A stretch of 64,000 bases of DNA from Acidobacteriota bacterium. Its GTDB lineage: Bacteria; Acidobacteriota; Vicinamibacteria; Marinacidobacterales; Marinacidobacteraceae. Below are positions 1 through 44,720 of the stretch, piece by piece (positions within the stretch are counted from its first letter, which is position 1; each line of letters starts with the position of its first letter). The DNA lies in the NCBI GenBank assembly GCA_022822745.1, contig JAJEAO010000005.1:17831-81830 (forward strand), read 5' to 3'. Below the pieces are notes generated by a model that saw nothing but the letters and a program-made list of their open reading frames with translations, was not told the origin of the DNA and searched no databases. A program made the position numbers and the translations under genes.

Positions 1-5
1 GGAAT

Positions 6-1928
6 GTGATCGCCGGCAACTCGCTCTTCGGCGTGGCTGACCGAGACTTGGTGATCTCGCCGGGGACCTTCGAGGCCGCCGGGCTCCGCCAGTGGCTTGA
101 TCTCGCGAGCGACGCCGCGGCCGAAGTTGCTGAAGGGCTTGATCGTACGAGGCAGGAGTATTCCCGAAGTGAGGCAGCCGACAAGAGCGCCAAGAGGGCT
201 CTGTCGGGGCTTGCCCGCGTGTACGACTTGTGGGCGGCGGAGTCGTTCGGCCACTTCGGCGGACGCCACCTGATCGAGCGCTACGGTGCAAGGATTGCTA
301 CGGAGACGTTGCACCCGGACCGGGAGGCGGAGATCGCGGCGGCGCAGGCCACCGCGGAGAAACACCGGTTCCTCCACTGGCCGCTGGCTTTCCCGCTCCA
401 GTTCCACCGGGACCGACCCGGATTCGACGCCGTGGTCGGGAATCCGCCATGGGAGGAGGTCACGATTGAGGAACTCGGGTTCTATGTGCTCTACCAGCCG
501 GGGCTGAACTCGATGCCGGAGGCGGAACGGGAACAGGCGATCACCGAACTTCTCCAGCGGCGGCCGGAACTAACGGAGCGCTTCGAAGACGAACAGGAGC
601 GCGTCGCAGCGGCGCGCGCCGCGCTCGCGGCTAGCGGCTATGCCTCGACCGTGGGCGACCCGGATCTCTACAAGTCCTTCTGCCAGCGCTACCGGGCGCT
701 CCTGCGGCAGGGCGGACGCCTGGGCGTGGTGCTGCCTCGGTCGGCATTCAACGCGAAGGGATCAAGGGCTTTCCGGAAGTGGCTCCATCGTGAGACCACG
801 GTCGAGCGCGTGGACTTCCTGCTGAACAAGGGGCGTTGGGCTTTCGACGCGGAGCCGCGCTATTCGGTGGGCCTCCTTGCCGCCCGAAACCAGGTGCCCG
901 CCTCGAAGCACCGCATCGAGATCGCGGGCGTGGCGGACTCTCCGGAGGCCTGGGAGGAGCAAGGGACGCTCCCGGGGGTCCGCATCCCCGACTCGGGGCT
1001 CGGGCCGGACCTCCAGATCCCGCTGCTCGAATCCCAGGCGGAAGCCGATCTTCTCGCCAAGCTGCGTCGGGGGACGCCGTTCCCGCTCGGCGGCGGCCGC
1101 TGGCGCTGCTTCGCCGTCCGGGAACTCGACGAGACGAACGACAAGCGGCTCTGGAACGCCGTCGTCCGGTCCGACGCGACGCTTCTGCCCCTGTGGAAGG
1201 GTGAGAGCTTCGATCAGTACGACCCGCACGGGGCCGGGGAGCGGCGCTGCCCGGACAGCGAGGCGCTCCAACGGAAGATCCGGAAGCCGCGTCCGGGCAG
1301 CGGCCAGCTTGTCGGCAAGAAGATAAGCCTTGCAGTGCGGCGGCGGGCGGTGCTTCGAGAACTCCAACGGGCGCGGGTGGCATTCCGGGATGTGACGAAC
1401 CGCACGAACTCACGAACGGTCCTTGCTTGCTTGGTCCCACCGCGAACGCTCCTGACGAACACGGCTCCCTATGTTGCTTTCGTGGGCGAGGAGGAGATCG
1501 CTCAGTCTGCTGCACTGGGTGTGATGAACAGTCTGACATTCGACTGGCAGGCGCGGCGATACGTCGAAATCCACATGAGCTTCTTCCTGCTGAACTCACT
1601 CACGATCCCCAACCTTGATCACGAGGACTTCGCAGCCATCGCGGAATCCGCAGCACGGCTCTCCGCGCCAGACGAGCGCTTTGCCGACTTTGCCGCTACC
1701 ACCGGGGTCGAGGTCCGCGACCTGTCCGAGGAGGAGCGACAGCGCCTCCGGGTTGACATCGACGCCCGGGTGGCGCGCGCCTGGAATCTGAACCTGGACG
1801 ACCTCGAAGTCATGCTCGACGACTTCACGGAGCGGGCCGTTCCGCCTGCCTACCGCACTGCCCTTCGCCGCAGGCTGCGAGAGCTTCGCGACGGGGCCGA
1901 TTCGGGCGCCGCCGGGAGGACTCCCTGA
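6..1928 (+). CDS. N6-adenine DNA methyltransferase, C-terminal ~640 aa (5-prime end cut by the window edge); DrmMI / PglX / type IIG-like
   Basis: ORF is open to the window start. Motif IV DAVVGNPPW (gamma-class amino-MTase) lies ~140 aa in, followed by a long C-terminal region. Its TGA stop overlaps the next ATG (TGATG). GC3 bias is weaker than in neighbouring native genes. Confidence 0.7.
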   Translation: MIAGNSLFGVADRDLVISPGTFEAAGLRQWLDLASDAAAEVAEGLDRTRQEYSRSEAADKSAKRALSGLARVYDLWAAESFGHFGGRHLIERYGARIATETLHPDREAEIAAAQATAEKHRFLHWPLAFPLQFHRDRPGFDAVVGNPPWEEVTIEELGFYVLYQPGLNSMPEAEREQAITELLQRRPELTERFEDEQERVAAARAALAASGYASTVGDPDLYKSFCQRYRALLRQGGRLGVVLPRSAFNAKGSRAFRKWLHRETTVERVDFLLNKGRWAFDAEPRYSVGLLAARNQVPASKHRIEIAGVADSPEAWEEQGTLPGVRIPDSGLGPDLQIPLLESQAEADLLAKLRRGTPFPLGGGRWRCFAVRELDETNDKRLWNAVVRSDATLLPLWKGESFDQYDPHGAGERRCPDSEALQRKIRKPRPGSGQLVGKKISLAVRRRAVLRELQRARVAFRDVTNRTNSRTVLACLVPPRTLLTNTAPYVAFVGEEEIAQSAALGVMNSLTFDWQARRYVEIHMSFFLLNSLTIPNLDHEDFAAIAESAARLSAPDERFADFAATTGVEVRDLSEEERQRLRVDIDARVARAWNLNLDDLEVMLDDFTERAVPPAYRTALRRRLRELRDGADSGAAGRTP

Positions 1929-4900
1929 TGGCTCGGCCCGAGCTCGTGGACAACCGCGGGGCGAACACTCACGCCCACGCCCTCCACGCGCTCGCGGACG
2001 ACCACGATTCACGCCACCCGCTGGCCGCGGCCACCGCGTACTTCAACCTCATCGGGCTCCACCACCTCGCGCAGGCTACGCGGGATGGGCGATCCGGGCG
2101 GCTCCTCCTCGGCACTTCCCGCCCCACTGGAGGGAAGTCCAGCACCCTCGACGTCTTCGGCGCCTGCATGGAGGAGTTTCGTCGGGATCGAGACCACGCC
2201 TCGTTCCCGCCCAGCCGCGCCTCGAAGACTCTGAGCGACGTGCTGGCCTGGCTTCAGCGCGACGACATCGAGGTCCGCCGCTATCTGAAGCAGTTCCTTC
2301 ACGGCAAGGCTTATCTTCTTGGCGAGATCGCTGACGCCCGCGCGGCGCTGGTCACCTCGGCGAACCTGACCGCCGCCGGACTCGCCCGGAACCTCGAGCT
2401 GGGCGTCGCCGACTACCAGCCCCACGTCGCCCGCAGCGCCATCGAGTGGTTCGACCGTCTGTGGGAGGAGGCGCCCGATTTCAAGGGAGACCTCATCGAA
2501 ATTCTCGGCAGCGCCCGTCTGAATCTGGAGGATCCGTGGACGGTCTTCCTCCGGGCGCTGCTCGAACTCTTCGGGGACGACGAGGAGGAGATCGCCAAGC
2601 CCGGGAAGGTGAACCTCGCGCCGTTCCAGTGGGACGGCTATCGCCGCGCTCTCAAGATCCTCCGCCGCCACCACGGCGTGGTCTTCGCCGACGGCGTGGG
2701 CACCGGCAAGACCATGATCGGCCTCGCCTTCCTCGAGGAGTACGCACTGCGCCGGGGCCAGCTCGCGATCGTCATCGCCCCCGCCCAGCTCCGCGAGCGC
2801 TGGCAGGACGACATTGCCCAGCGTGGACTGCCAGCCAAGGTGCTGAGCTACCACGAGCTGGCCTCCGACATCCAGCTCGCCCCGAAGGATGTCGCGAACC
2901 GCAAGCGCCACCTCTCCGCCGACAAGGACGCCTACCGCCTCGTCCTCGCCGACGAGGGCCACGCGTTCCGCAACCCGGGCACGACCTGGCACCGGGCGCT
3001 CTCCCGCCTGCTCGGCGGCGAGCCGAAGGATCTGGTGCTCCTCACCGCGACGCCGATCAACAACGGTCTCTGGGACCTCTACCACCTGGTCATGGCGTTC
3101 GCCCGCCACGATCGGGCCTTCGCCAACTGGCGTATCCCCTCGCTCCGGGAGCTGTTCGAGCGCGCCGGAGCGAGTGCGCGGAAGGCCGCGGATCTCGACC
3201 CCGATGTTCTCTTCGCGCTCGCGGATCTGGTGAGCGTCCGCCGTGATCGGCGTTTCCTCGTCGAGCGCTACAAGGGCGAGACTTTCCCCGATGGCACGGT
3301 CGTCCGCTTCCCCGAGCCGGAGCTGCATACCGCCCGCTACGACCTCGATTCGGCGGATCCCGGTCTCGTCCCCACGATCACCGAGGCGATCGAGGGGCTC
3401 ACCATGGCCCGTTACGTCCCGAGCCGCTATCTCGTCGCCGGGAACGAGTCGAAGCGGGAGGGGCAGCTTTCCGGGCTGCTCCGCTCCGGCATCCTGAAGC
3501 GCTTCGAGTCCTGCTGGCATGCCTGCCGGCTCACCGTGAAGAGGATGATGCGGGCGCACGAGGCCTTTCTCGTGGCCTGGGACGAGGGTTGGGTGCTCGG
3601 AGGGCAGGCGCTCAAGGAGGCGGCGGAAGGAGAGGAAGAGGTTTCGGGCCTGGCCGAGACGCTGGCCGAGGACAGCTTCGGCGACGATCGGATCCCCTCG
3701 TCCGAGTTCGATCCCTCCTACCGGAAGGACGTCGAGCGCGATCTGGCCGCGCTCCGGAAGATCGAGGCGCGGCTCGACCGGCTGACCCCGGAGGACGACC
3801 CGAAGCTGGCCTGCCTCACCGACCTGATCGAGAAATCGCCATCGCAGAAAGTCATCGTCTTTTCCACCTTCGCCGACACGATCCGATATCTCGACGAACA
3901 GCTCCCGGAGAAGATCAGGGGCCGCGAGCGCATCACCGTGATCGGCGACGAGGCGGACCCGGACCAGCGCACCGAAATGCTCTCCCGGTTCGCTCCGAAG
4001 TCCGTGATCGGTCCGGACCATCTGCCCGAGGACGGCGAGGTGGATCTGCTCCTCAGCAACGATGTCCTCTCCGAAGGTCAGAACCTCCAGCAGGCCGCCG
4101 CGGTCATCAGCTACGACATGCCGTGGAACCCGCAGCGCGTCGTTCAGCGCTACGGGCGGGTCATCCGGCTGAAGAGCGAGCACAGGCGCGTCTTCCTGAC
4201 CACCATGCTTCCCGCGCCGGGAGAACTCGAACCCATCCTGAAGCTGGAAGTCGCCATCCGACGCAAGATGGCGGCGGCGGGCGTTTACGGGATGGAGGTG
4301 GAGGTCGTCGAGGATGCGCCGGCGTCGGAAGTCCGCGCCTTCGCCGATCGCCTCCAGGCGGGAGACGCTTCGCTCCTCGACGAGGCCGCGGATGGCGACG
4401 AGGGCCAGTTGTTCAGCGGCGAGGGACTTCGCGCCGAGCTGGCCCGCTGGATCCACGAAATGGGGATCGAGAAGTTGAAGAAGCTGCCGTGGGGGACGGG
4501 AGCGGTGTTCCAACGCCAGTCCGACGACCCGCGCCGCGAGGAGGGGGGCTGGTTCTTCGCCTGCCGCACGCGAAGGGACGAGCGCTACTGGCGCTGGGTG
4601 GAGCGCGATCGTTCCACCCGACCCGAGCCCGACGCCGCCATCCTGCGCCGCATCCACCCGCGCGGTGCGGAGGGCCTGATGGACGGCGACTACCAGCCCG
4701 ACGAAGCGCTCGAAGCGGCCTGGAGCGCAGCGGCGGCCTCCATCGTCTCCGAACACAACGGACTGGTGGAGGCGGCGGAAGACGGTGATTCCATCGGTCC
4801 GCTCCAGACCTGGGCGATCCGGGACATCCTCGAGGATCCGGATGTGCGCCTGCCCGACGGGGCGAACGCTGCCGCCGAAGCGCTCGCAGTCGGACGCGGC

Positions 4901-5107
4901 ACGATCGTCCGCCGCGCGCTGGGCGCGATCCGGAAGCGCGTGGAGAGCCGGGAGATCACGAGAGACCGCGCGGCCATCGAGATCGTGGAGCTGGTGCGAA
5001 CCGAAGGGCTGCGGCCGGTGGAGGAGCTCGCGCGACTCGAACCGATCACCGAGGAGGATCTGGGCGTCGTCTGCTGGATGGAGATCCGCCCCACCGACCC
5101 GACCTGA
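1928..5107 (+). CDS. PLD/HKD-type nuclease domain fused to an SNF2-family (DEGH-box) helicase
   Basis: N-terminus has FLHGKAYLL...ALVTSANLTAAGL, which parallels the HxK...GSxN PLD/Nuc motif. Helicase motifs: GVGTGKT (I), LVLADEGHAFRN (II), LLTATPINNGLWDLYHL (III), VIVFSTF (IV), LLSNDVLSEGQNLQ and QRYGRVIRL (V/VI). Confidence 0.85.
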   Translation: MARPELVDNRGANTHAHALHALADDHDSRHPLAAATAYFNLIGLHHLAQATRDGRSGRLLLGTSRPTGGKSSTLDVFGACMEEFRRDRDHASFPPSRASKTLSDVLAWLQRDDIEVRRYLKQFLHGKAYLLGEIADARAALVTSANLTAAGLARNLELGVADYQPHVARSAIEWFDRLWEEAPDFKGDLIEILGSARLNLEDPWTVFLRALLELFGDDEEEIAKPGKVNLAPFQWDGYRRALKILRRHHGVVFADGVGTGKTMIGLAFLEEYALRRGQLAIVIAPAQLRERWQDDIAQRGLPAKVLSYHELASDIQLAPKDVANRKRHLSADKDAYRLVLADEGHAFRNPGTTWHRALSRLLGGEPKDLVLLTATPINNGLWDLYHLVMAFARHDRAFANWRIPSLRELFERAGASARKAADLDPDVLFALADLVSVRRDRRFLVERYKGETFPDGTVVRFPEPELHTARYDLDSADPGLVPTITEAIEGLTMARYVPSRYLVAGNESKREGQLSGLLRSGILKRFESCWHACRLTVKRMMRAHEAFLVAWDEGWVLGGQALKEAAEGEEEVSGLAETLAEDSFGDDRIPSSEFDPSYRKDVERDLAALRKIEARLDRLTPEDDPKLACLTDLIEKSPSQKVIVFSTFADTIRYLDEQLPEKIRGRERITVIGDEADPDQRTEMLSRFAPKSVIGPDHLPEDGEVDLLLSNDVLSEGQNLQQAAAVISYDMPWNPQRVVQRYGRVIRLKSEHRRVFLTTMLPAPGELEPILKLEVAIRRKMAAAGVYGMEVEVVEDAPASEVRAFADRLQAGDASLLDEAADGDEGQLFSGEGLRAELARWIHEMGIEKLKKLPWGTGAVFQRQSDDPRREEGGWFFACRTRRDERYWRWVERDRSTRPEPDAAILRRIHPRGAEGLMDGDYQPDEALEAAWSAAAASIVSEHNGLVEAAEDGDSIGPLQTWAIRDILEDPDVRLPDGANAAAEALAVGRGTIVRRALGAIRKRVESREITRDRAAIEIVELVRTEGLRPVEELARLEPITEEDLGVVCWMEIRPTDPT

Positions 5108-5183
5108 CCCGGTCGAGCCGGCGTCGGCGGCCTGCAAGGGTTGCCGCGGGGCTATCCTCACGCTTCCCGTCGGAAGTTCCGCG

Positions 5184-6389
5184 ATGAAGGTCCAGGTGAA
5201 TCCCGAGCTCCTTGTGTGGGCCCGGCGCACGGCGGGACTGGGGGTCGAGGAGGCGGCTCACCTGCTCCGGTTCGAGGACACCCGACGCCGAACAGCGGCG
5301 GAGCGGCTGGCCAGTCTCGAACGAGGGGCCGAGGCGCCGTCCCTTTCGGTGCTCGATCGGATGGCGCATCGCTACCACCGGCCTGTCCTCGCGTTCTACC
5401 TCGAGCACGCTCCCGAAGAAGAGGAGAGCGCCGCGCGGCTTCGTTCCGCCCCCGGAGACCTGACTCGCCGGGAGGCCGGCTTGCTGGATGCCTTTGTCCG
5501 ACGAATGCGCGAGCGCCAGCGTCTGCTGCGTGAGGCGCTCGAGGACGGTGAAGAGGGTGAGGTCGTCCCGTGGGTGGGGTCGGCGGATGTCCGCGACGGC
5601 GCGACGGCGCTCGCGGCTCGCATCCGTCGCCTTCTCGATCTGAATCTCACCGAGTTCCGCTCCCGGCGCGATGCGAGAGCAGGGTTCGAGTGGCTCCGGG
5701 GGAAGGTCGAGACCACCAGAGCGGTTGTTCTGCTCGAAGGCGACCTGGGCTCCCACCAGACGGCGCTAGAGCTCCACGTATTCCGCGGCCTCTCGCTTGC
5801 CGATCCGGTGGCGCCATTCATCGTCATCAATCCGGGGGACGCGGACGCTGCCTGGTCGTTCACGCTGCTCCACGAGCTGACGCACCTCGTTCTGGGACAG
5901 AGCGAGTTCGCGAGTCTGACGAGCGACGACCGCATCGAACGTCTTTGCAACGACGTGGCTGGGGAGCTGCTCGTGCCAGCGCGGGACCTTCAGGGACTCG
6001 GGCCGATGCGCGCACGCGATCTGGATCAGCTCCGCGACAGCATCTCGGATCTGGCCCAAGCCTGGCGCGTCAGCCGTTCGATGGTCGCCTACCGCATGTT
6101 CCGCACCGGGCTCATTCACCGCGATGAATTCCTATCGCTCCTGAGCACCTTCGAGCGGCGCTGGCAGAAAGCCAAGGAAGCTCGAAGAGCCGCGAATCGT
6201 ACGCGCCCGAGTGGTCCGGATTTCTATGCGGTGCGGCGCTATCGCTTGGGAAAGGCGATGATCCGACGGACGAAACGGTTGTGGCGGAGCGGGTCGTTGT
6301 CCACGACAGAGGCCGGGCGGATCCTCGGTGTGCGTGGCGGCAGCGTTCACGCTCTACTGGATGTCGCGAGCGAGCGAGCACGACGTTGA
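5184..6389 (+). CDS. HTH (XRE-like) + ImmA/IrrE-family zinc metallopeptidase regulator
   Basis: ATG at 5184 lies inside the longer track ORF 4785..6389, whose upstream part overlaps the helicase 3-prime end and looks non-coding. HEXXH motif in LLHELTHLVLGQSEF; helix-turn-helix-like N-terminal segment. Confidence 0.75.
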   Translation: MKVQVNPELLVWARRTAGLGVEEAAHLLRFEDTRRRTAAERLASLERGAEAPSLSVLDRMAHRYHRPVLAFYLEHAPEEEESAARLRSAPGDLTRREAGLLDAFVRRMRERQRLLREALEDGEEGEVVPWVGSADVRDGATALAARIRRLLDLNLTEFRSRRDARAGFEWLRGKVETTRAVVLLEGDLGSHQTALELHVFRGLSLADPVAPFIVINPGDADAAWSFTLLHELTHLVLGQSEFASLTSDDRIERLCNDVAGELLVPARDLQGLGPMRARDLDQLRDSISDLAQAWRVSRSMVAYRMFRTGLIHRDEFLSLLSTFERRWQKAKEARRAANRTRPSGPDFYAVRRYRLGKAMIRRTKRLWRSGSLSTTEAGRILGVRGGSVHALLDVASERARR

Positions 6390-6593
6390 TCTATCTTCTG
6401 GACGAGAACTTCGGACTGGAGGAATCCGTGACGCATGAATGGGAAGGGCTCCGCGATGACAAAGCTGATTCTGCTGTGGCGCGTCAATCAGGGTGAGACG
6501 AGCGCGACAAACAGGATAGGACGGAGTCGGACGGTCGGCGGAGTCGTGAGCCGTCGTTGAGGGGGCTCGCGACAAGGACGACCGGACGGCGCT

Positions 6594-6614
6594 GAGCCCC
6601 GGCTCGCCGGGGCT
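6594..6614 (+). terminator. GC-rich hairpin (agccccggc-tcg-ccggggct) downstream of the ImmA/IrrE gene; possible intrinsic terminator without a U-tract
   Basis: Perfect 9-bp stem seen in the sequence; no T-run follows. Confidence 0.25.
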
Positions 6615-6632
6615 TCTCCGCCGGGGTCGGGG

Positions 6633-9600
6633 GTGTGTGGCGCGCCGGGATGGGCGTGTTGGCGGGAGGGTGAAGCCGGGTTGGAGGCGGGGCGCATACC
6701 ATCGCGCCATGTCGTGGCGGCGCGGGGGGAAGCGCAGGGCGCGGATCCGCGAGAGGGCGGCTCCGTGACGCAACTCGGTGTGCGTCCGGACTCGGGCCGC
6801 AGCCGGTCCGAGCCGGCGTCATCCACCCCCGGCGTTCTGGTCCAGGAGCTGGATCGCATCGCGCGGGAAACCGGGAGAGCCCGCAAGATCCTGATCGGTC
6901 GCACGCGTGGCGAGGGGAAGGAGCTGCTGCGGCAAGTGGCGCTGCGTGGCCGCTCGTGGACGGGGTTCGAGGTCGAGACGTTACGACCCTTCGCTTCCCG
7001 AATCGCTGCGCCCCGCCTCGCCCGGGATGGCCTCGCGGTGATGGATTCGGTCGACGAGCACGCTCTCGTCGAGCGCGCCCTGGACTGCGTGATCCCGCGC
7101 TTCCCCGACTTCTCGGAACTCGCGGAGAAGACCGGGTTCCGGGAGGCGGTGCGCCACTCGGTGGCGGCGCTGCGAAACGCCGGCGTCCGGCCGGACGCCG
7201 TGGAGCCCCGTGGCGGAGATTCGCAGGGGTTCGACAAGACCTCGCTGGTGACGCAGGTTCTGGCGGCGTACGAGTCTCTGATGCGGGAGGCGAACCGAAC
7301 GGACACGGCGGGGATCCTCCGGAGGGCGACCCGGAGTCTCGACGGCGGCGAGCGCCCTCGCTGGCTCGCGGATGCCCGGATCTTCCTGCTCCCCGGGCTT
7401 CCCGACCGGGGACTCGAGAGAGGCTTTCTGGCTGCACTGCAGGGCCTCGGGGCGGAAGTTCTCCGGACCGACGCTGTGGAGGGCCTGAATGTCCCGGATG
7501 GAGTCCTCTGGGAGGCGGCGCCGCCGGAATCCTGGGGCAGTTGGCTCCACGCCGTGGATCGGTGCGAGGCGGGCGCTCGGTCCGACCGCATCGAGCTGTT
7601 CCGCGCGGCTTCGGTTTCCGACGAGTTGCGAGGTGTGCTGCGAAGGGCGCTGGACATGGGAGCCCGCTGGGATCAGGTCGAGATCGTCGCCGCCGACCCC
7701 TGGTCGTACGGGTCGGCGCTCCACGCGGTGGCTGAGGCGAAGGAGATCCCGGTCAACTTCGCGGTCGGCCTGCCGGTCGAGCGAACCCGTCCCGGAAGGG
7801 TCGTCTCGACCTGGTTCCGCTGGATCGAGAGCGGTTTCCAGGAGTCGCTCTTCCGGGCGCTCGTCGAGGCCGGCGATGTGACGCCGCCGGGGAAGACGCG
7901 ATCCAGGGGGTTGTATGGCCCGTCTCTTGCCCGGGCGCTGCGGCGGCTCCGGATCGGGTGGGGCAGGGAACGAACGCTCGAGAGGATCGAGCAGGGGCTC
8001 GAGGGCGTCAGCGCGCTTCGGCCCAAGCCCACCGAGAGCGAGGCGAAGTTCGAGGAACGCAGGAAGTGGGAGCGCAGGAAGTGGGAGCGCAGGAAGTTGA
8101 TGGCGCTGCGGGACCTTCTCCGTCCCGTGCTCGAGGCGACGCCGGCGACCGACGGTCAGGCCTCGCCGTCCGAGGTTGCGAGCGGCGTGAAGAGTCTGCT
8201 GAAGCGAGCGACAAGCGGCACCGCCACCGACGGCATGGCGAGGCAGCGGCTCCTGGGTCAACTCGATCGCATCGAGGCCACGTTGACGCGTCCCACCGAC
8301 TTCGCTTCGGCCTGCGCGATCGTCCAGGCCCGCCTCCAGATCCGCATCCCGGCGCCGGGAACGAAGGGGCTGGCGCGGTGGAGCACTGCGCCCGGCGCCA
8401 TCTACCTGACGGATCGGCGGCATGGAGGCGCCACCGGCCGCCGCTTCACCTTCATCGTCGGTCTCCATGCGCGGTCCGTGGTCGGCTCGCTCCACGAAGA
8501 TCCGCTGCTCGGCGACGAGGAACGGCGTCGCATCGGCGAGGGTGAACTGCCGCTCGCGTCTGACCGGGCGGATGAGGCCCGCTTCGACTTCGCCCAGCTC
8601 TTCGCTCGATTGCGGGGCACGGTCGTCGTCAGCTACCCGTGCTGGGATCCCGTCCAGAGCAGGAAACTGGCGCCGGCTCCCGAAATGCTTCAGGCGCTTC
8701 GGCTTCGCGAGTGCGATGCGGCCCTCGGCTTCGAGAAGCTGGAGAAGGCAATCGGCGTGGCCGAGTCGCGTGCGCCGCGTCAAGAAATCACCGCCGACCT
8801 CGACCGCAGCGATGCGTGGCTACGCGCTCTCACGAGGGAGCCAGGCCGATTCCGCGACGGACTGGCTGCCGTTTCGCGATCGTTTCCCCAGCTTGGCGCG
8901 GGCCTCGCCGTCGCTCGGGCCCTCGAGCGCGACGAGCCGTCGGTGCATACCGGTTTTCTCGGTGTCCATTCTCCGCCTCTCCCCTACCAGGATGTCTCGG
9001 GCTGGAAGTTCTCGGCGAGCGGTCTCGAGACCCTGGGTACCTGTCCCCGACGCTTTCTCTTCAAGTACATCATCAAGGCGTATCCGCCCGACGACCCCGA
9101 GTTCGATCCCGGCCGGTGGCTGAATGCGCTAAAGAAGGGAGGACTGCTTCATCGGGTGTTCGAGAAGACACTCAAAAAGGCTCGGTGCCGCGGGATCGAA
9201 CCTCTCGACTCCCAGTTTGAGATTCTTGCTCAAAAGGTGCTGGCGCTCGAGGGTCAGAAGGAGCTCCGGAACACACCTTCCCCGAGCCAGGCGGTGCACC
9301 GCTGGCAGATGGAGGAACTCCAGGAGGACGCTCGCTCCTTCGTCGAGATGATTCGCAAGCGGGAGCCGCAGTGGCTGAAGCTCGAATGGCCGTTCGGGCG
9401 GGACACGGATCTGAAGATCCAGGCCGGGCGTCGGTCCGTTCTAGTGCGCGGTTCCGTGGACCGGGTTGACGACCATGGCAGTCACCTGCTCGTGGTGGAC
9501 TACAAGACCGGCAGCGATTACAAGTACCAAGGTGAAACCAAGACCCACGACGGTGGACGGCGCCTGCAGCACTTCCTGTACGCCCGCGTGGTGGCCGACG

Positions 9601-9932
9601 AAATGGATCCTGTGGACGCCATGGAGTACCACTTTCCCACCGTCAAGGGCGAGAATCGGATCCGGCGCTACGAGGCCTCGCAACTCCACACAGGTGGCGA
9701 CCTCGTCGAAACTCTCCTGGAGGGCGTGGAGGAGGGATCGTTTCCCGCCACGGATGCCCATGAGGACTGCAGGTTCTGCGACTACAAGGAGAGCTGCGGC
9801 GTTCAGACCGACAAGCGGGGTAATGCGGTTGGCGGCATCCCCGATTGGACGAAACGCAACAAGACATCCGTCGCCGCGCTGGAGCGGTTGCGGAACGTGC
9901 GCGACTGGGACAAGAAGAAGACAGCTTCGTGA
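6633..9932 (+). CDS. addB: AddB-like helicase-nuclease subunit (RecB-type PD-(D/E)xK nuclease with C-terminal Cys cluster)
   Basis: 1099 aa. Degenerate P-loop-like GRTRGEGKE near the N-terminus. C-terminus has VDRVDDHG...LLVVDYKTGSDYKY...EDCRFCDYKESCG. Exact start uncertain: GTG at 6633, or GTG near 6765. Confidence 0.7.
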   Translation: MCGAPGWACWREGEAGLEAGRIPSRHVVAARGEAQGADPREGGSVTQLGVRPDSGRSRSEPASSTPGVLVQELDRIARETGRARKILIGRTRGEGKELLRQVALRGRSWTGFEVETLRPFASRIAAPRLARDGLAVMDSVDEHALVERALDCVIPRFPDFSELAEKTGFREAVRHSVAALRNAGVRPDAVEPRGGDSQGFDKTSLVTQVLAAYESLMREANRTDTAGILRRATRSLDGGERPRWLADARIFLLPGLPDRGLERGFLAALQGLGAEVLRTDAVEGLNVPDGVLWEAAPPESWGSWLHAVDRCEAGARSDRIELFRAASVSDELRGVLRRALDMGARWDQVEIVAADPWSYGSALHAVAEAKEIPVNFAVGLPVERTRPGRVVSTWFRWIESGFQESLFRALVEAGDVTPPGKTRSRGLYGPSLARALRRLRIGWGRERTLERIEQGLEGVSALRPKPTESEAKFEERRKWERRKWERRKLMALRDLLRPVLEATPATDGQASPSEVASGVKSLLKRATSGTATDGMARQRLLGQLDRIEATLTRPTDFASACAIVQARLQIRIPAPGTKGLARWSTAPGAIYLTDRRHGGATGRRFTFIVGLHARSVVGSLHEDPLLGDEERRRIGEGELPLASDRADEARFDFAQLFARLRGTVVVSYPCWDPVQSRKLAPAPEMLQALRLRECDAALGFEKLEKAIGVAESRAPRQEITADLDRSDAWLRALTREPGRFRDGLAAVSRSFPQLGAGLAVARALERDEPSVHTGFLGVHSPPLPYQDVSGWKFSASGLETLGTCPRRFLFKYIIKAYPPDDPEFDPGRWLNALKKGGLLHRVFEKTLKKARCRGIEPLDSQFEILAQKVLALEGQKELRNTPSPSQAVHRWQMEELQEDARSFVEMIRKREPQWLKLEWPFGRDTDLKIQAGRRSVLVRGSVDRVDDHGSHLLVVDYKTGSDYKYQGETKTHDGGRRLQHFLYARVVADEMDPVDAMEYHFPTVKGENRIRRYEASQLHTGGDLVETLLEGVEEGSFPATDAHEDCRFCDYKESCGVQTDKRGNAVGGIPDWTKRNKTSVAALERLRNVRDWDKKKTAS
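8058..8102 (+). repeat. In-frame tandem 15-bp repeat (cgcaggaagtgggag, 2 full copies + 1 partial) encoding ERRKWERRKWERRKL inside the addB-like gene
   Basis: Direct tandem copies read from the sequence. Confidence 0.6.
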
Positions 9933-12900
9933 GCGACGAGCGATCCGGACTCCGGTCGGTGACTGAGCGGTCCGTCACGCCTCGACGCCCAACGGCCCGG
10001 TACAGCGAACCCGGTGAGTCTCGCACCGACGTAGTCCCGGATGGGGAGGCGCGACGGCGCATCCGCAAGAACCTGGAGCGCAACTTCCTCGTGGAGGCGG
10101 GGGCGGGCTCAGGCAAGACGAAGTCGCTGGTGGACCGCATGGTGGCTCTGGTGAGCAGCGGCGCCTGTCAGGTGGAGGACATCGCAGCGGTTACCTTCAC
10201 GCGCATGGCTGCAGCGGAACTCCGCCAGCGCTTCCAGGAGGAACTGGAGAAGAAAATCGAGTGCGCGCACAAGCGCTCCCAAGCGGATGATCGGAAGCGC
10301 CTCGAACGAGCGCTCCGGAACATCCACCAGGCGTTTCTCGGAACCATCCACGCCTTCTGCGCCAGGCTGCTGCGCGAGCGACTGGTGGAGGCAGGGCTGG
10401 CTCCGGATTTCCGGGAACTGGAGGAGACCGAAGCGGAGCGCTCGAAGCAGGTGTTCTGGAACGACTTCCTGGAGAAGCTGGCGGTGAATGAGGATCCCGT
10501 TCTGCTCAAGCTCAAGCGCTTGGGGATCCGCCCCAGCACGCTTCAGGGAGCCTTCGGCAGCTTGGTCGAGAATCCGGACGTGGATTTCGTCGCCGAGAGG
10601 GTCGAGCGGCCGGATCCGGATGATGTCGCGGCGCTACGGGCCGAATTCGATGCTCTCCTCTACCGGGCAGAGGTGATGATGGAGGGCCTGCAGCCCAAGG
10701 AAGGGTGGAAGTCCCTTGGACAGGGATTCCGCACGGCGCTGTATTGGCACCGGTCGCCGAACTGGAAGGATCCGGCGGTCTTCTTTGAGGTCGTTGCCAA
10801 GTTTCACAGGATCAGAGAGAAGGAGACTGGGAAAATCCTGACGCTGAAACGGTGGGCCCGCACTCGCTCCGGCCAAAAAGAGGCGAAGAAGCTGGCCGAG
10901 GATTCCCAGGCCTTCGGGTGTAAGGCGGACAAACTGCTACGACAGTGGTGGGCTTACCGATATCCGGTGGCGGTGGATCTGGCCGGCAGGGCGGCGGAAG
11001 AGTACGCGTACGAGCGGAAGGCTCGGGGCGAGGTCACGTTCGACGATTTGCTCGTTTTCTCCACCGAGCTGCTTCGCAAGAACGACGAGGCGCGCCGCGA
11101 TCTGGGGCGCCGCTACCCGCGGATCCTCGTGGACGAGTTCCAGGACACCGATCCGCTGCAGGCCGAGATCCTGCTTCTCCTGTCCAGCGACCCCGAGTCG
11201 GGTGACGACTGGAGGAGAGTCACTCCCCGGCCCGGTTCGCTCTTCGTCGTCGGTGATCCCAAGCAGAGCATCTACCGATTCCGCCGCGCCGACATCTCGC
11301 TCTACGAGATGGTGAAGCGCCGCTTCAAGAAGTTCGGCGAGGTCCTGCGCCTCGAAGCGAACTTCCGCTCGCTGCCGGACTTCGAGAAACTGGTGGAGGG
11401 CGTCTTCAACGATGGGCAGCACTTCCCGAGCGCGAGTTCAGACCGCCAGGCCTCGTTTGCGCCGCTGCGGGCCCAGATGCAAGGGCGCGGTCTGCTGGCC
11501 GCCTACCGGGTTCAGGGCGCGAACCAGGACGATGTCGCCGAGGACGATGCCGCCCGCATCGCCTCTGAGATTTCGCGGCGGGTTCGATCGGGAGAGCGTC
11601 GGCCCGGCGCGTTCATGATCCTGACCGGGCGACGCAAGTTCCTGTCGGTTTATGTTCGAGCGCTCGAGAGGCGCAACCTCCCGGTCGAGGTGTCGGGCGC
11701 GGGCGTGGGTTTCGAGGACGAGTCGCGGGCGTTTCTGACGCTCTTCCGGTGTCTGGCGGACCCCCAGCACGAAGTGCACGTTCTTTCGGTGTTGACTGGG
11801 CCCTTCTTTGGCATGACCCTCGACCGCATCGTGCGGTACAGGGACAGCGGTGGCTCGCTTGTCGCCGATTGCCGGCCGGAGGGCGACTGCGAGGTCGCAG
11901 AGGCGATCGGGAGTCTCCACCGGTGGTGGTGTCTTGCGCGCCGCGAGCCCGCGGACATCACGGCCGAGAGGCTCGTGGAGAAGATCGGCCTCTTCCCCCT
12001 CGCGGCGGCGGCGCCCTTGGGAGGGATGCGTGCCGGGACTCTGGCGTACCTGCTGGACGCCGTGCGGGACCGGGCGCGAGCGGGCGATTCCTCGCTCGCG
12101 GGCGCCGTGGACGCCATGGAGACAGCGCTCGAAAACAAGGAAGCCGAACCGTCGTTGATCCCGACGCAGCCCGATTGCGTGCGCGTCCTGAATCTGCACC
12201 GCGCCAAGGGTCTCGAAGCTGACGTGGTCTTCCTGGCCGCGCCGTTTGGCGCCTCCGATCCCGATCCGCGGATGCACGTGTCGCGCCGTGAAAAGGGCAG
12301 CCCCGAAGGCCATCTGGCCGTCGGACTCAAGGTCCGATTTTCGTGGGAGACCATCGCGCAGCCCCTCGACTGGGAGGAGAAGAAGCGCAAGGAGGTGGAG
12401 TTCGCGAAGGCGGAACAGATCCGGCTGCTCTATGTCGCGGCGACGCGCGCAAGGCACGAACTCTGGATCGCGTGCCGCCCCGCCGAGATGTCCTGGCAGT
12501 CGAGGCCGTCACCGTGGGCGGATGTGGAGGAATGGGTGGTGGAGAGGGCCGGCAAGGACCGAGAGGCGGACTCGTCGTGCCACTGCGTTGTCCTGGACGA
12601 ACTGCCGAAGGACTGCGTGCCCAAGCCGGCCCGCCTGGAACCCGGGGAGGGTCTCACCGGGAGGATCAGGGCTGCCAAGGCGGGGGTGCGTCGGAGCCGC
12701 AAGGCGACCTACGCCGTGGAGAAGGTCACGGACCTGGCGAAACAGAACCGGCCGGAGGGAGAGGTCAACGTCTCCACGGAGCCGAGGGAGGCCGATACGG
12801 ACGACAAGGCTCACGCGCCGCTCGATCCCGGAACCAGGGGACGCGAATGGGGCACCGTAGTGCACGAGGTGCTTGCCGAGGCGGGCGAGGGGGTCGAAAG

Positions 12901-13333
12901 GGAAGCGCTGGAAGCGTTCGCCCGCGCCCGCCTCGTCGAGCGCGAGCGCCCGCTGGATCGGACCGGAGCGCCGACCGAGCTGGCCGCCCTCCTGGATCTG
13001 GTGGAGCGGGTGCGCGAGATGGACATTTGGAAGCGCGCCATGGCCAGCAAGGAACGCCACACCGAAATGCCCTTCGCCGTGCACCGGCCGCGCCCCGATG
13101 GCGGCCCCGGGGTTCTCGAAGGCGTGATCGACCTCGTCTTCCGGGAAGGGGACCACTGGGTGGTGGCCGACTACAAGACCGACCGTGGCGACGACCCCGG
13201 TTTTCTCGCCAGGACGGGCAGGCACCGCGCGCAGGTGGACCTCTACGCGGAATGCTGGGAACAACTCACCGGCGAAGTCGTCGGCGAGCGGGCGCTGGTT
13301 TACACCTCGCAGGGAAGGACCAGCACCTGGTGA
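9929..13333 (+). CDS. addA: AddA-like UvrD-family helicase with C-terminal RecB-type nuclease domain
   Basis: Walker A GAGSGKT, motif II ILVDEFQDTDPLQ, C-terminal VIDLVFREGDHWVVADYKTD (PD-(D/E)xK). Proposed GTG start overlaps the addB-like stop (GTGA). The track ORF opens at 9845, but that would overlap addB by 88 nt. Confidence 0.75.
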   Translation: MSDERSGLRSVTERSVTPRRPTARYSEPGESRTDVVPDGEARRRIRKNLERNFLVEAGAGSGKTKSLVDRMVALVSSGACQVEDIAAVTFTRMAAAELRQRFQEELEKKIECAHKRSQADDRKRLERALRNIHQAFLGTIHAFCARLLRERLVEAGLAPDFRELEETEAERSKQVFWNDFLEKLAVNEDPVLLKLKRLGIRPSTLQGAFGSLVENPDVDFVAERVERPDPDDVAALRAEFDALLYRAEVMMEGLQPKEGWKSLGQGFRTALYWHRSPNWKDPAVFFEVVAKFHRIREKETGKILTLKRWARTRSGQKEAKKLAEDSQAFGCKADKLLRQWWAYRYPVAVDLAGRAAEEYAYERKARGEVTFDDLLVFSTELLRKNDEARRDLGRRYPRILVDEFQDTDPLQAEILLLLSSDPESGDDWRRVTPRPGSLFVVGDPKQSIYRFRRADISLYEMVKRRFKKFGEVLRLEANFRSLPDFEKLVEGVFNDGQHFPSASSDRQASFAPLRAQMQGRGLLAAYRVQGANQDDVAEDDAARIASEISRRVRSGERRPGAFMILTGRRKFLSVYVRALERRNLPVEVSGAGVGFEDESRAFLTLFRCLADPQHEVHVLSVLTGPFFGMTLDRIVRYRDSGGSLVADCRPEGDCEVAEAIGSLHRWWCLARREPADITAERLVEKIGLFPLAAAAPLGGMRAGTLAYLLDAVRDRARAGDSSLAGAVDAMETALENKEAEPSLIPTQPDCVRVLNLHRAKGLEADVVFLAAPFGASDPDPRMHVSRREKGSPEGHLAVGLKVRFSWETIAQPLDWEEKKRKEVEFAKAEQIRLLYVAATRARHELWIACRPAEMSWQSRPSPWADVEEWVVERAGKDREADSSCHCVVLDELPKDCVPKPARLEPGEGLTGRIRAAKAGVRRSRKATYAVEKVTDLAKQNRPEGEVNVSTEPREADTDDKAHAPLDPGTRGREWGTVVHEVLAEAGEGVEREALEAFARARLVERERPLDRTGAPTELAALLDLVERVREMDIWKRAMASKERHTEMPFAVHRPRPDGGPGVLEGVIDLVFREGDHWVVADYKTDRGDDPGFLARTGRHRAQVDLYAECWEQLTGEVVGERALVYTSQGRTSTW

Positions 13334-13943: not shown

Positions 13944-14081
13944 CCGTGGTCGCGTGCCGGGCAGGGCCGCTACCGGGAGAACCGGCCCGGCGCGCCGGCA
14001 GGGGCCGCGCTGGCGGCGGCGGGAGGAACGCGATGCCGGGTGGGGGGCCCGCGGGTGGACCGACCAGAGCCGCACCGGCGG

Positions 14082-44220: not shown

Positions 44221-44720
44221 TCTATGGAGCGCCGGTCTCCAGACCGGCACCGCAATGGAATCCGGCTGGAGTCGAGAATTGCCACTCTGGAGAGTGGCGC
44301 TCCATAGGAACGGCGCTGCGCACTGCCGGCGCGCCGGGCCGGTTCTCGCGGTAGCGGCCCCGCCCGGCAGTGCGTACGATGGCGATGCCGAGAGGTAGCG
44401 CGAATTGCCGCTCTGGAGAACCCCTACCGGGAGAACCGGGGCGCTCCACACGAAAGCACCTGCTGCATGACACGCGGTGCCGCTCTGGAGAACCCCTACC
44501 GGGAGAACCGGGGCGCTCCATAGGAACGGCGCTGCGCACTGCCGGCGCGCCGGGCCGGTTCTCGCGGTAGCGGCCCCGCCCGGCACGCACGAACTGCCGG
44601 CCTCCGCCGGCTCTCCCGGTACCGGCCCTGCCCGGCACGTTGCCGGCGCGCCGGGCTCCCGCCCGGCACGATGACGCCGGCGGCGGGGCGCCACCCTGAC
44701 TGGCCGCGGCCGACTGGTAC
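44221..44720. repeat. Cluster of nested direct and inverted GC-rich repeats / stem-loops in the ribBA-efp intergenic region
   Basis: A ~72-bp unit (cgctccataggaacggcgctgcgcactgccggcgcgccgggccggttctcgcggtagcggccccgcccggca) occurs at ~44298 and ~44514. A 41-bp unit (ccgctctggagaacccctaccgggagaaccggggcgctcca) occurs at ~44408 and ~44479. A shorter variant (gccactctggagagtggcgctcca) is at ~44281, and an inverted copy (tatggagcgccggtctccagaccgg) at ~44222. The palindromic core tgccggcgcgccgggc appears 3 times, and the cccggcac motif is reiterated up to ~44670. Confidence 0.7.

Follow-up and report, generated by a model that had tools for sequence, protein, structure and literature searches.

A methyltransferase-linked PLD-SNF2 helicase-nuclease of Vicinamibacteria as part of a probable two-gene restriction module, with an inverted repeat running through its catalytic-motif codons

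Nuclease domains of the phospholipase D (PLD) superfamily, which carry the HKD motif, are known fused to motor domains in type III-like restriction-modification operons (PMC2292703), as PbeA (PMC10853773) and as BR type-2 helicases (PMC12839542), and a PLD domain of type cd09178 with a SNF helicase domain has been reported beside Cj0031-like type II methyltransferase genes with programmed inversion (Milman et al. 2023, PMC9881135). In this work, we describe a gene of this architecture at positions 1928-5107 of a 64,000-nucleotide (nt) stretch of DNA from an Acidobacteriota bacterium of the class Vicinamibacteria (contig JAJEAO010000005.1; the whole stretch is hereafter called the window), which encodes an N-terminal PLD domain followed by an SNF2-type motor of helicase superfamily 2 (SF2), and which directly follows a gene for an N6-adenine DNA methyltransferase. 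The two closest solved relatives are such fusions. The crystal dimer of SauUSI is held by its PLD domains, the enzyme translocates on ATP, its linker is acidic and disordered, and it is an active nuclease although it has H-x-K-x4-E instead of the canonical Asp (PMC7913695). MtsD of the MANTIS system was determined at 2.2 Å by cryo-electron microscopy (cryo-EM) as a dimer in which two PLD domains form one site, and both MtsD and its ATPase activity are required for restricting unmethylated DNA (bioRxiv 10.64898/2026.09.23.753747). One further MANTIS component, the small co-regulator MtsB, is called DUF3870 in that preprint (bioRxiv 10.64898/2026.09.23.753747) and DUF3780 elsewhere (PMC12839542).

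Our results suggest that the product of the open reading frame (ORF) at 1928-5107 probably serves as restriction subunit in a compact defence module of two genes, which would depend on ATP and resemble restriction-modification. The architecture as such is already known, and the protein is an uncharacterised PLD-motor restriction effector in a minimal two-gene format; the coordinates of all features are collected in Table 1.

An earlier note, made from the sequence alone, had placed a single-copy HKD motif without its canonical Asp at the N-terminus of this helicase, within 1928-2560, and the peptide that it quoted, FLHGKAYLLGEIADARAALVTSANLTAAGL, corresponds to residues 123-152 of the ORF (nt 2294-2383), inside that span. 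The Pfam domain PLDc_2 matches the whole protein with 36.4 bits and residues 1-211 with 40.5 bits (E = 3e-10), against a gathering cutoff of 27 bits, and in the Pfam-A search the match covers one stretch only, amino acids (aa) 44-179, so that the N-terminal position of the domain and its single HKD copy both hold. The same family (PF13091) is precomputed for nearly all homologues, and a weak additional Pfam match to the N-terminal PLD domain of NgoFVII was obtained. When the single sequence of aa 1-211 was searched with phmmer against PDB sequences no match was found, and a profile search was therefore needed: a profile built from 25 diverse N-terminal domains matched the solved PLD nucleases SauUSI (1.1e-13), BfiI (1.6e-8), Zucchini (2.8e-7), Nuc (1.1e-5) and NgoAVII (4e-5). 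An AlphaFold2 monomer model of aa 1-226, computed from an alignment with 55 homologues, reached a predicted local distance difference test (pLDDT) score of 86 and a predicted template modelling (pTM) score of 0.83, and shows the alpha/beta fold of the PLD/HKD superfamily. All top Foldseek matches of this model in the PDB belong to that superfamily, with SauUSI 7CLG first (E = 7.8e-7), followed by phosphatidylserine synthase, Nuc, Zucchini, BfiI, PLD3/4 and Tdp1. The earlier note had proposed structure prediction with a structure search, and a hidden Markov model search for PLDc, as checks on its claim; both came out in its favour, as the predicted fold is PLD and not an unrelated one, and the PLDc match stands above the curated threshold. 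Among 1.84 billion cluster representatives, a search with the N-terminal domain recovered 823 families at E <= 1e-3, whose full-length members are mostly 1000-1200 aa long with the PLD domain N-terminal.

Ten residues (R117, H125, K127, S144, N146, T148, G151, E157, W179 and P203) are invariant among 25 representatives sharing 25-49% identity. The H, K, S, N and E of this set make up the active site of the Nuc/BfiI type, and they align with the motifs of SauUSI, BfiI and Zucchini. The position of the HKD Asp is occupied by G132, as the earlier note had observed, and this Gly is shared by all members of the 29-sequence alignment and by at least 90% of those in the 56-sequence one; sister clades of the same superfamily have Asp at the equivalent position. 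The canonical Asp is not essential for membership in the PLD/HKD superfamily, and its loss is real but not disqualifying, because the active SauUSI has Glu there and the sister clades keep the Asp. The segment that follows the nuclease domain is rich in Asp and Glu across the family alignment.

The motor gives Pfam-A matches to SNF2-rel_dom (41.4 bits, cutoff 24.9), Helicase_C (63.9 bits) and ResIII; the residues of the Walker A, DEGH, III and VI motifs are invariant in 29 homologues, as expected of the SNF2 family. The C-terminal domain behind it could serve as a docking surface, either for the methyltransferase or for DNA.

Regarding the partner, the left edge of the window truncates the methyltransferase gene; in relatives, the gene directly upstream of the helicase encodes a full-length homologue of 1300-1320 aa. 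The fragment in the window matches Pfam Eco57I (46 bits) and the PADLOC model REase_MTase_IIG (194 bits), and DrmMI matches too; the full-length homologues score 371-386 bits with REase_MTase_IIG and 217-235 bits with DrmMI. The REase_MTase_IIG alignment starts at model position 270, with the first ~260 residues of the methyltransferase uncovered; a profile of the N-terminal 540 aa found no sequence match in the PDB, and the N-terminal 530 residues contain neither a PD-(D/E)xK-like signature nor an invariant Lys. These three observations, namely the uncovered N-terminus, the missing PDB match and the missing invariant Lys, argue that the methyltransferase probably has no nuclease of its own. 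Likewise, no second HxK-type half-site is apparent in these 530 residues, which have no invariant Lys.

The two genes are tightly linked. The methyltransferase stop codon overlaps the helicase start in the window (TGATG), and a scan of species-representative genomes yielded 80 distinct related loci, from Vicinamibacteria, other Acidobacteriota, Acidimicrobiia, Gemmatimonadota/Longimicrobiales, Solirubrobacterales, Gaiellales and others, many of them metagenome-assembled genomes (MAGs) associated with sponges. A methyltransferase homologue was found in about 79 of the 81 related loci; it lies upstream on the same strand in 76 of the 80 distinct loci, and its stop is at most 30 nt from the helicase start in 53 of the 80. 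An unbiased clustering of all flanking ORFs of the 80 loci, which took in as much as 10 kb of either flank as far as the contig reached, gave no conserved neighbour besides the methyltransferase, and this clustering, together with Pfam scans of the relatives' upstream ORFs, found no DUF499, DUF3780 or DrmA/B. In the closest relatives, the methyltransferase gene is preceded by genes for Fic, FAA hydrolase, RlmN, gyrase or hypothetical proteins. Furthermore, Euzebya pacifica and Rhodococcus erythropolis carry a co-diverged pair on plasmids, with 31-36% identity in each of the two proteins, and the more distant PLD-helicases of Synechocystis pSYSX, Lactococcus pJM1F, Planktothrix and Thermococcus also have a gene for a large DNA methyltransferase close by.

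The junction between the two genes behaves like an insertion hotspot for other defence-type cassettes: 19 of the 80 loci (including L008, L014, L015, L025, L031, L032, L035, L037, L059, L072, L080 and L081) carry 0.6-9 kb of genes between methyltransferase and helicase, among them an AAA_15/AAA_21 ATPase with DUF4276, DUF2326 (ABC-3C), DUF5131, Schlafen/HATPase_c_4/Fic-like genes, a DUF4143 ATPase and GAF-EAL. In a relative with 62% identity (L001 / L060, Vicinamibacteria OY729431.1, locus 5886-9999), the methyltransferase is called as two genes of 1097 and 171 aa about 300 nt apart, and may be frameshifted or interrupted beside an intact helicase.

Among the described systems, MANTIS / Gao_RL / BR type-2 MtsD resembles the window protein in its layout, since both have an N-terminal single-HKD PLD domain and an SF2/SNF2 motor beside an N6-adenine methyltransferase. 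MtsD restricts unmethylated DNA, and its cryo-EM dimer has one PLD site (bioRxiv 10.64898/2026.09.23.753747). In contrast to the family described here, MANTIS needs a DUF499 AAA+ ATPase, MtsA, and the co-regulator MtsB, neither of which is linked to the window family; in terms of BR type-2, the effector does stand beside an N6-methyltransferase, whereas the clustering of the 80 relatives gave no conserved third gene that could stand for DUF499/DUF3780. Moreover, the sequence relationship is distant and falls short of equivalog level, with a score of 117 bits for NF042964 (phospholipD_antiphage), whose cutoff is 1100, and 72 bits for PADLOC PLD_Helicase; the methyltransferase of the window, for its part, is DrmMI / type IIG-like and 1310 aa long. 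The genes specific to class 1 DISARM encode three domain types (DrmMI methyltransferase, DrmD SNF2 helicase and DrmC PLD nuclease), and all three occur here, but PLD and SNF2 are fused here in one chain, the core DrmA/DrmB (YprA helicase and DUF1998) is absent near all relatives, and the scores fall far under the NCBIfam equivalog cutoffs (DrmD 112 vs 610, DrmC_I 39 vs 133, DrmMI a partial match). Because DUF499/DUF3780 and DrmA/B partners are absent and equivalog scores are far under the cutoffs, the pair is best placed outside MANTIS/BR type-2 and DISARM, although it most likely works like them.

Other relatives differ in different respects. SauUSI (Type IV, PDB 7CLG) shares the N-terminal PLD domain, the non-canonical HxK motif, the acidic flexible linker and the SF2 motor, but it is a single-gene, modification-dependent enzyme with an SRA-like target-recognition domain at its C-terminus, whereas the window protein is paired with a methyltransferase and has no such domain: neither a C-terminal SRA nor a DUF3427 reader of modified cytosine was found in it. 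Nuc and BfiI have neither motor nor ATP dependence, and BfiI carries a B3-like DNA-binding domain. In PbeA (PbeABCD) and in CglI/NgoAVII a PLD nuclease is likewise coupled to an SF2 ATPase in defence or restriction-modification (PMC10853773, PMC7913695); PbeA, whose PADLOC model matches aa 120-311 with 45 bits, has an ABC ATPase and DndE as partners, and in CglI/NgoAVII the nuclease (R-subunit) and the SF2 ATPase (H-subunit) are separate polypeptides with a B3 target-recognition domain. Type III Res/Mod is alike in its two-subunit logic, by analogy only: Res is an SF2 helicase with a PD-(D/E)xK nuclease and Mod carries the target-recognition domain, whereas here an SNF2 motor is joined to a PLD nuclease. 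Finally, the pairing of a Cj0031-like gene with a PLD (cd09178)-SNF helicase gene offers the same two-gene context, in which a PLD-SNF2 gene adjoins one for a large Eco57I-type methyltransferase, together with programmed inversions (PMC9881135). The best PADLOC match of the helicase-nuclease is the 'HKD+Snf2' model (138 bits). The earlier note had pointed to a nuclease tethered to a translocase, with a PLD instead of the usual fold; the description is correct, but it is not a novelty, being known for SauUSI, MtsD/Gao_RL, PbeA, BR type-2 helicases and CglI/NgoAVII. The HKD domain alone adds little, therefore, as PLD-SF2/SNF2 fusions are catalogued (PADLOC 'HKD+Snf2', cd09178) and solved (SauUSI, MtsD). 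What the family represents is a widespread minimal two-gene theme of methyltransferase plus PLD-motor protein without the MANTIS loader ATPase, ranging over Acidobacteriota, Acidimicrobiia, Gemmatimonadota, Solirubrobacterales, sponge symbionts and actinobacterial plasmids, and it could reveal which BREX-related parts are dispensable for self/non-self discrimination.

By analogy with these systems, the proposed mechanism would run as follows. The methyltransferase, translationally coupled upstream, would presumably methylate host DNA at a short recognition sequence, and the module would discriminate self from non-self by this mark; incoming DNA with unmethylated sites would license the motor in a methyltransferase-dependent manner, and ATP hydrolysis would power translocation or remodelling. 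Two protomers would then dimerise and join their PLD domains into one metal-independent active site with two His, two Lys and two Asn, which would cut both strands in turn via a phosphohistidine intermediate. Several points weigh against this reading. For MtsD itself, cleavage of DNA in vitro is not yet shown (bioRxiv 10.64898/2026.09.23.753747); the canonical HKD Asp is replaced by Gly; MANTIS requires MtsA and MtsB to load its methyltransferase, and a two-gene version may differ or need host factors; and the window edge cuts the methyltransferase gene, so that the absence of further components here rests on the relatives.

This last point allows for the helicase-nuclease being a component of a larger system (BR type-2 / MANTIS / Hma or class 1 DISARM) whose other genes lie just left of the window, in which case the combination of an HKD-SNF2 helicase with an N6-methyltransferase in BR type-2 (PMC12839542) and the partial PADLOC/NCBIfam matches to the DrmD, DrmC, DrmMI, HmaA and PLD_Helicase / phospholipD_antiphage models would find a ready explanation. 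We consider it very unlikely, the least probable of the readings weighed here, given that the methyltransferase is the sole conserved neighbour in the 80-locus clustering, that other kinds of genes (Fic, FAA hydrolase, RlmN, gyrase, hypothetical) lie upstream in the closest relatives, and that the DrmD, phospholipD_antiphage and DrmC scores given above are far under the curated cutoffs. It also seems quite unlikely that the PLD-SNF2 protein works on its own as a modification-dependent enzyme of the SauUSI kind (Type IV), merely co-inherited with a methyltransferase or type IIG enzyme: SauUSI is indeed the best structural and sequence match of the nuclease domain, and the uncharacterised C-terminal domain could read modified bases, but the overlapping stop and start codons, the near-universal co-occurrence and the co-divergence with one methyltransferase family indicate a functional pair, and a self-methylating partner would be toxic beside a nuclease dependent on N6-methyladenine.

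Alternatively, the methyltransferase could be a complete type IIG enzyme with an N-terminal nuclease, leaving the PLD-SNF2 protein as an auxiliary or backup effector, or as a remodeller that clears DNA-bound proteins. REase_MTase_IIG is its best PADLOC model, Cj0031-like type II restriction-modification genes are listed beside PLD+SNF genes by Milman et al. (PMC9881135), and auxiliary nucleases are common around BREX-like systems (PMC12839542). This arrangement is nevertheless unlikely, as the model aligns only from position 270, omitting the nuclease region, the N-terminal 530 residues offer no invariant Lys, PD-(D/E)xK-like signature or PDB match, and all PLD catalytic residues are strictly conserved. 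The presence of Zucchini and PLD3/4 among the structural relatives, and the suicidal action proposed for some HKD-SF2 effectors (PMC10853773), raise the question of whether the PLD domain acts on another target, either single-stranded DNA or RNA, or, in the manner of an abortive-infection effector, the DNA of the host. Such a target is rather improbable: the domain is linked both to a DNA methyltransferase and to a motor of the double-stranded-DNA-translocase type, which favours classical restriction, and restriction nucleases are the closest matches.

Besides its proposed role as restriction subunit, the gene holds one end of an invertible 1-kb segment. A scan of positions 1-6500 gave one outstanding inverted repeat, with arms of 26 nt that are complementary at 24 of 26 positions and share a perfect 18-nt core, CAAGAAGATAAGCCTTGC. 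The closest relative is L002, the chromosome of a Vicinamibacteria MAG, with a helicase 83% identical. Since dinucleotide shuffles of the 6.5 kb gave a 26-nt repeat with 2 mismatches in 5 of 300 cases, which is of moderate significance alone, the case for inversion rests on the comparison with L002. In blastn, the window aligns with L002 forward at 369-1337, reversed at 1309-2325 and forward again at 2300-6412, and the L002 junctions (8986-9011 and 10001-10029) are reciprocal hybrids of the window arms, as expected from a crossover in the 18-nt core. The window has the intact arrangement, as do all other loci, and L002 the flipped one, in which the methyltransferase ends ~195 residues early and PLD residues 1-124 are removed from the helicase. 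Re-inverting L002 in silico restored an uninterrupted methyltransferase ORF and a gap-free full-length helicase starting right after the methyltransferase stop. The breakpoints thus coincide with inverted repeats, and the window and L002 differ in orientation, two features known from restriction-modification loci with programmed inversion; that an inversion between the two arms occurred is essentially shown. In the Cj0031-like loci the inversion target listed is the methyltransferase gene, whereas the arms in the window lie in the methyltransferase and in the nuclease catalytic motif.

The codons of arm 2 could double as a recombination site whose partner arm was installed in a variable loop of the methyltransferase gene, and the flip would be a reversible ON/OFF phase switch of the whole system in the Vicinamibacteria-like lineage. 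We hold this reading tentatively, at slightly less than an even chance; it is prompted by the repeat being kept in both lineages and by the flipped genes being undecayed, the ratio of nonsynonymous to synonymous substitution rates (dN/dS) of the two flipped coding parts being 0.19 and 0.17 at dS ~1, not above that of the flanking parts. One recent inversion is a possible alternative. Arm 1 lies inside a 53-nt run of perfect identity between window and L002, the second longest in the 6.4-kb cassette, in a region otherwise ~70% identical; the loop that it encodes is variable and one residue shorter in other clades. Of the loci compared, none but the window and L002 has the AT-ending codons of arm 2 (GCT TAT CTT CTT), and the G+C content of the window is ~68%. 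Should the switch be real, the inversion would be an unusual, compact means of silencing a toxic nuclease jointly with its antidote methyltransferase, and the passage of an inversion through catalytic-motif codons is the part that deserves further study.

The repeat is confined to these two lineages among the loci compared. As a family-wide feature it was rejected, because the other loci have at least 7 mismatches over the 26 nt and relatives at 69-73% identity are without it, and the GC-rich repeat seen in L069 and L073 ends after 16 nt and is apparently fortuitous. In metagenome scans the 26-mer gave 0 matches and the 18-mer core 104 single unrelated matches, none encoding the system, so that no further members of the lineage were recovered. 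No recombinase was seen among the 25 families listed of the 56 detected, in 61 ORFs of the rest of the window, and neither a sigma-70-like promoter nor an intrinsic terminator was found in positions 1-6700.

In the wider group, a distant PLD-helicase (1233 aa) on the Lactococcus cremoris plasmid pJM1F (L086, 1737-10230) precedes genes for an N6 methyltransferase, for a TaqI-like C-terminal specificity domain (in opposite orientation) and for an Mpi-family serine invertase. The locus resembles a two-gene system of PLD-helicase and methyltransferase to which a specificity shufflon has been added, and the invertase with its inverted specificity-domain arrangement suggests that inversion control is at least familiar in the wider group.

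Table 1. Features of the methyltransferase and PLD-SNF2 cassette, in window coordinates
Feature	Position	Strand	Basis or remark
C-terminal 640 aa of a ~1310-aa gamma-class N6-adenine DNA methyltransferase (Eco57I / DrmMI / type IIG-like)	6..1928	+	Pfam, PADLOC, relatives
NPPW, catalytic motif IV of the methyltransferase	441..452	+	
Inverted-repeat arm 1, in the methyltransferase gene, encoding VGKKISLAV in a clade-variable loop	1312..1337	.	
Invertible segment: last ~195 methyltransferase codons, gene junction, PLD codons 1-124	1338..2299	.	blastn breakpoints, hybrid junctions
PLD-SNF2 helicase-nuclease gene, 1059 aa, proposed restriction subunit	1928..5107	+	ORF, Pfam, PADLOC
Single-copy PLD/HKD nuclease domain, aa 1-215	1928..2572	+	
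H125-G-K127, catalytic HxK motif	2300..2308	+	Invariant across superfamily; aligned with HxK of SauUSI, BfiI, Zucchini
Inverted-repeat arm 2, codons for H-G-K-A-Y-L-L-G-E	2300..2325	.	
T143-S144-A-N146, (G/T)SxN half of the HKD motif	2354..2365	+	S144, N146 invariant
E157, downstream Glu of the HKD site	2396-2398	+	Invariant
Acidic linker GDDEEEIAKPG (aa 216-226) between nuclease and motor	2573..2605	+	pLDDT < 50 at aa 220-226
SNF2-type SF2 motor	2612..4297	+	Pfam SNF2-rel_dom, Helicase_C
Walker A, GVGTGKT	2693-2713	+	
Motor motif DEGH	2951-2962	+	
Motor motif III, LTATP	3041-3055	+	
Motor motif VI, QRYGRVIR	4145-4168	+	
C-terminal alpha+beta and helical domain, aa 790-1059	4295..5104	+	
HTH(XRE)-M78 (ImmA/IrrE-like) fused gene	5184..6389	+	Pfam Peptidase_M78; start mapped against L058

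Downstream, 76 nt 3' of the helicase, lies a gene for a helix-turn-helix (HTH)-M78 fusion protein, which matches the PADLOC RmrA and CapP models. It belongs to a block common to L002 and a further relative (L058), and more distant relatives lack it; in L002 the shared block extends as far as window position 6412. The fusion protein could regulate the cassette in response to damage or phage. Beyond it are two adjacent large genes on the + strand (6633-9932 and 9845-13333), with PD-(D/E)XK and UvrD-helicase plus PD-(D/E)XK domains, which look like a helicase-nuclease repair pair of the AdnA/AdnB or AddAB type and mark the right boundary of the cassette, because the block shared with L002 ends before them.

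A different system around the same effector type is found on the Enterococcus faecium plasmid pQL50 (L087, 8992-17939), where a distant PLD-helicase stands in a four-gene array with a helicase-related protein, DUF4391, a site-specific methyltransferase and a DEAD/DEAH helicase.

In its remaining part the window holds housekeeping genes, including those for riboflavin and purine metabolism and for elongation factor P (EF-P). One of the 61 ORFs beyond 13 kb matches AAA_21 (AbiEii-type ATPase, E = 5.6e-34), so that a second defence-like gene may be present there. In addition, a GC-rich unit of ~25 nt, with the consensus CCGGCTCTCACGGTACCGGCCCTGC, occurs in ~3 tandem copies at 44555-44636, with more copies nearby (~44330-44640) and one copy in opposite orientation near 13955 (13952-13990), and resembles a dispersed repeat of the repetitive extragenic palindromic (REP) kind.

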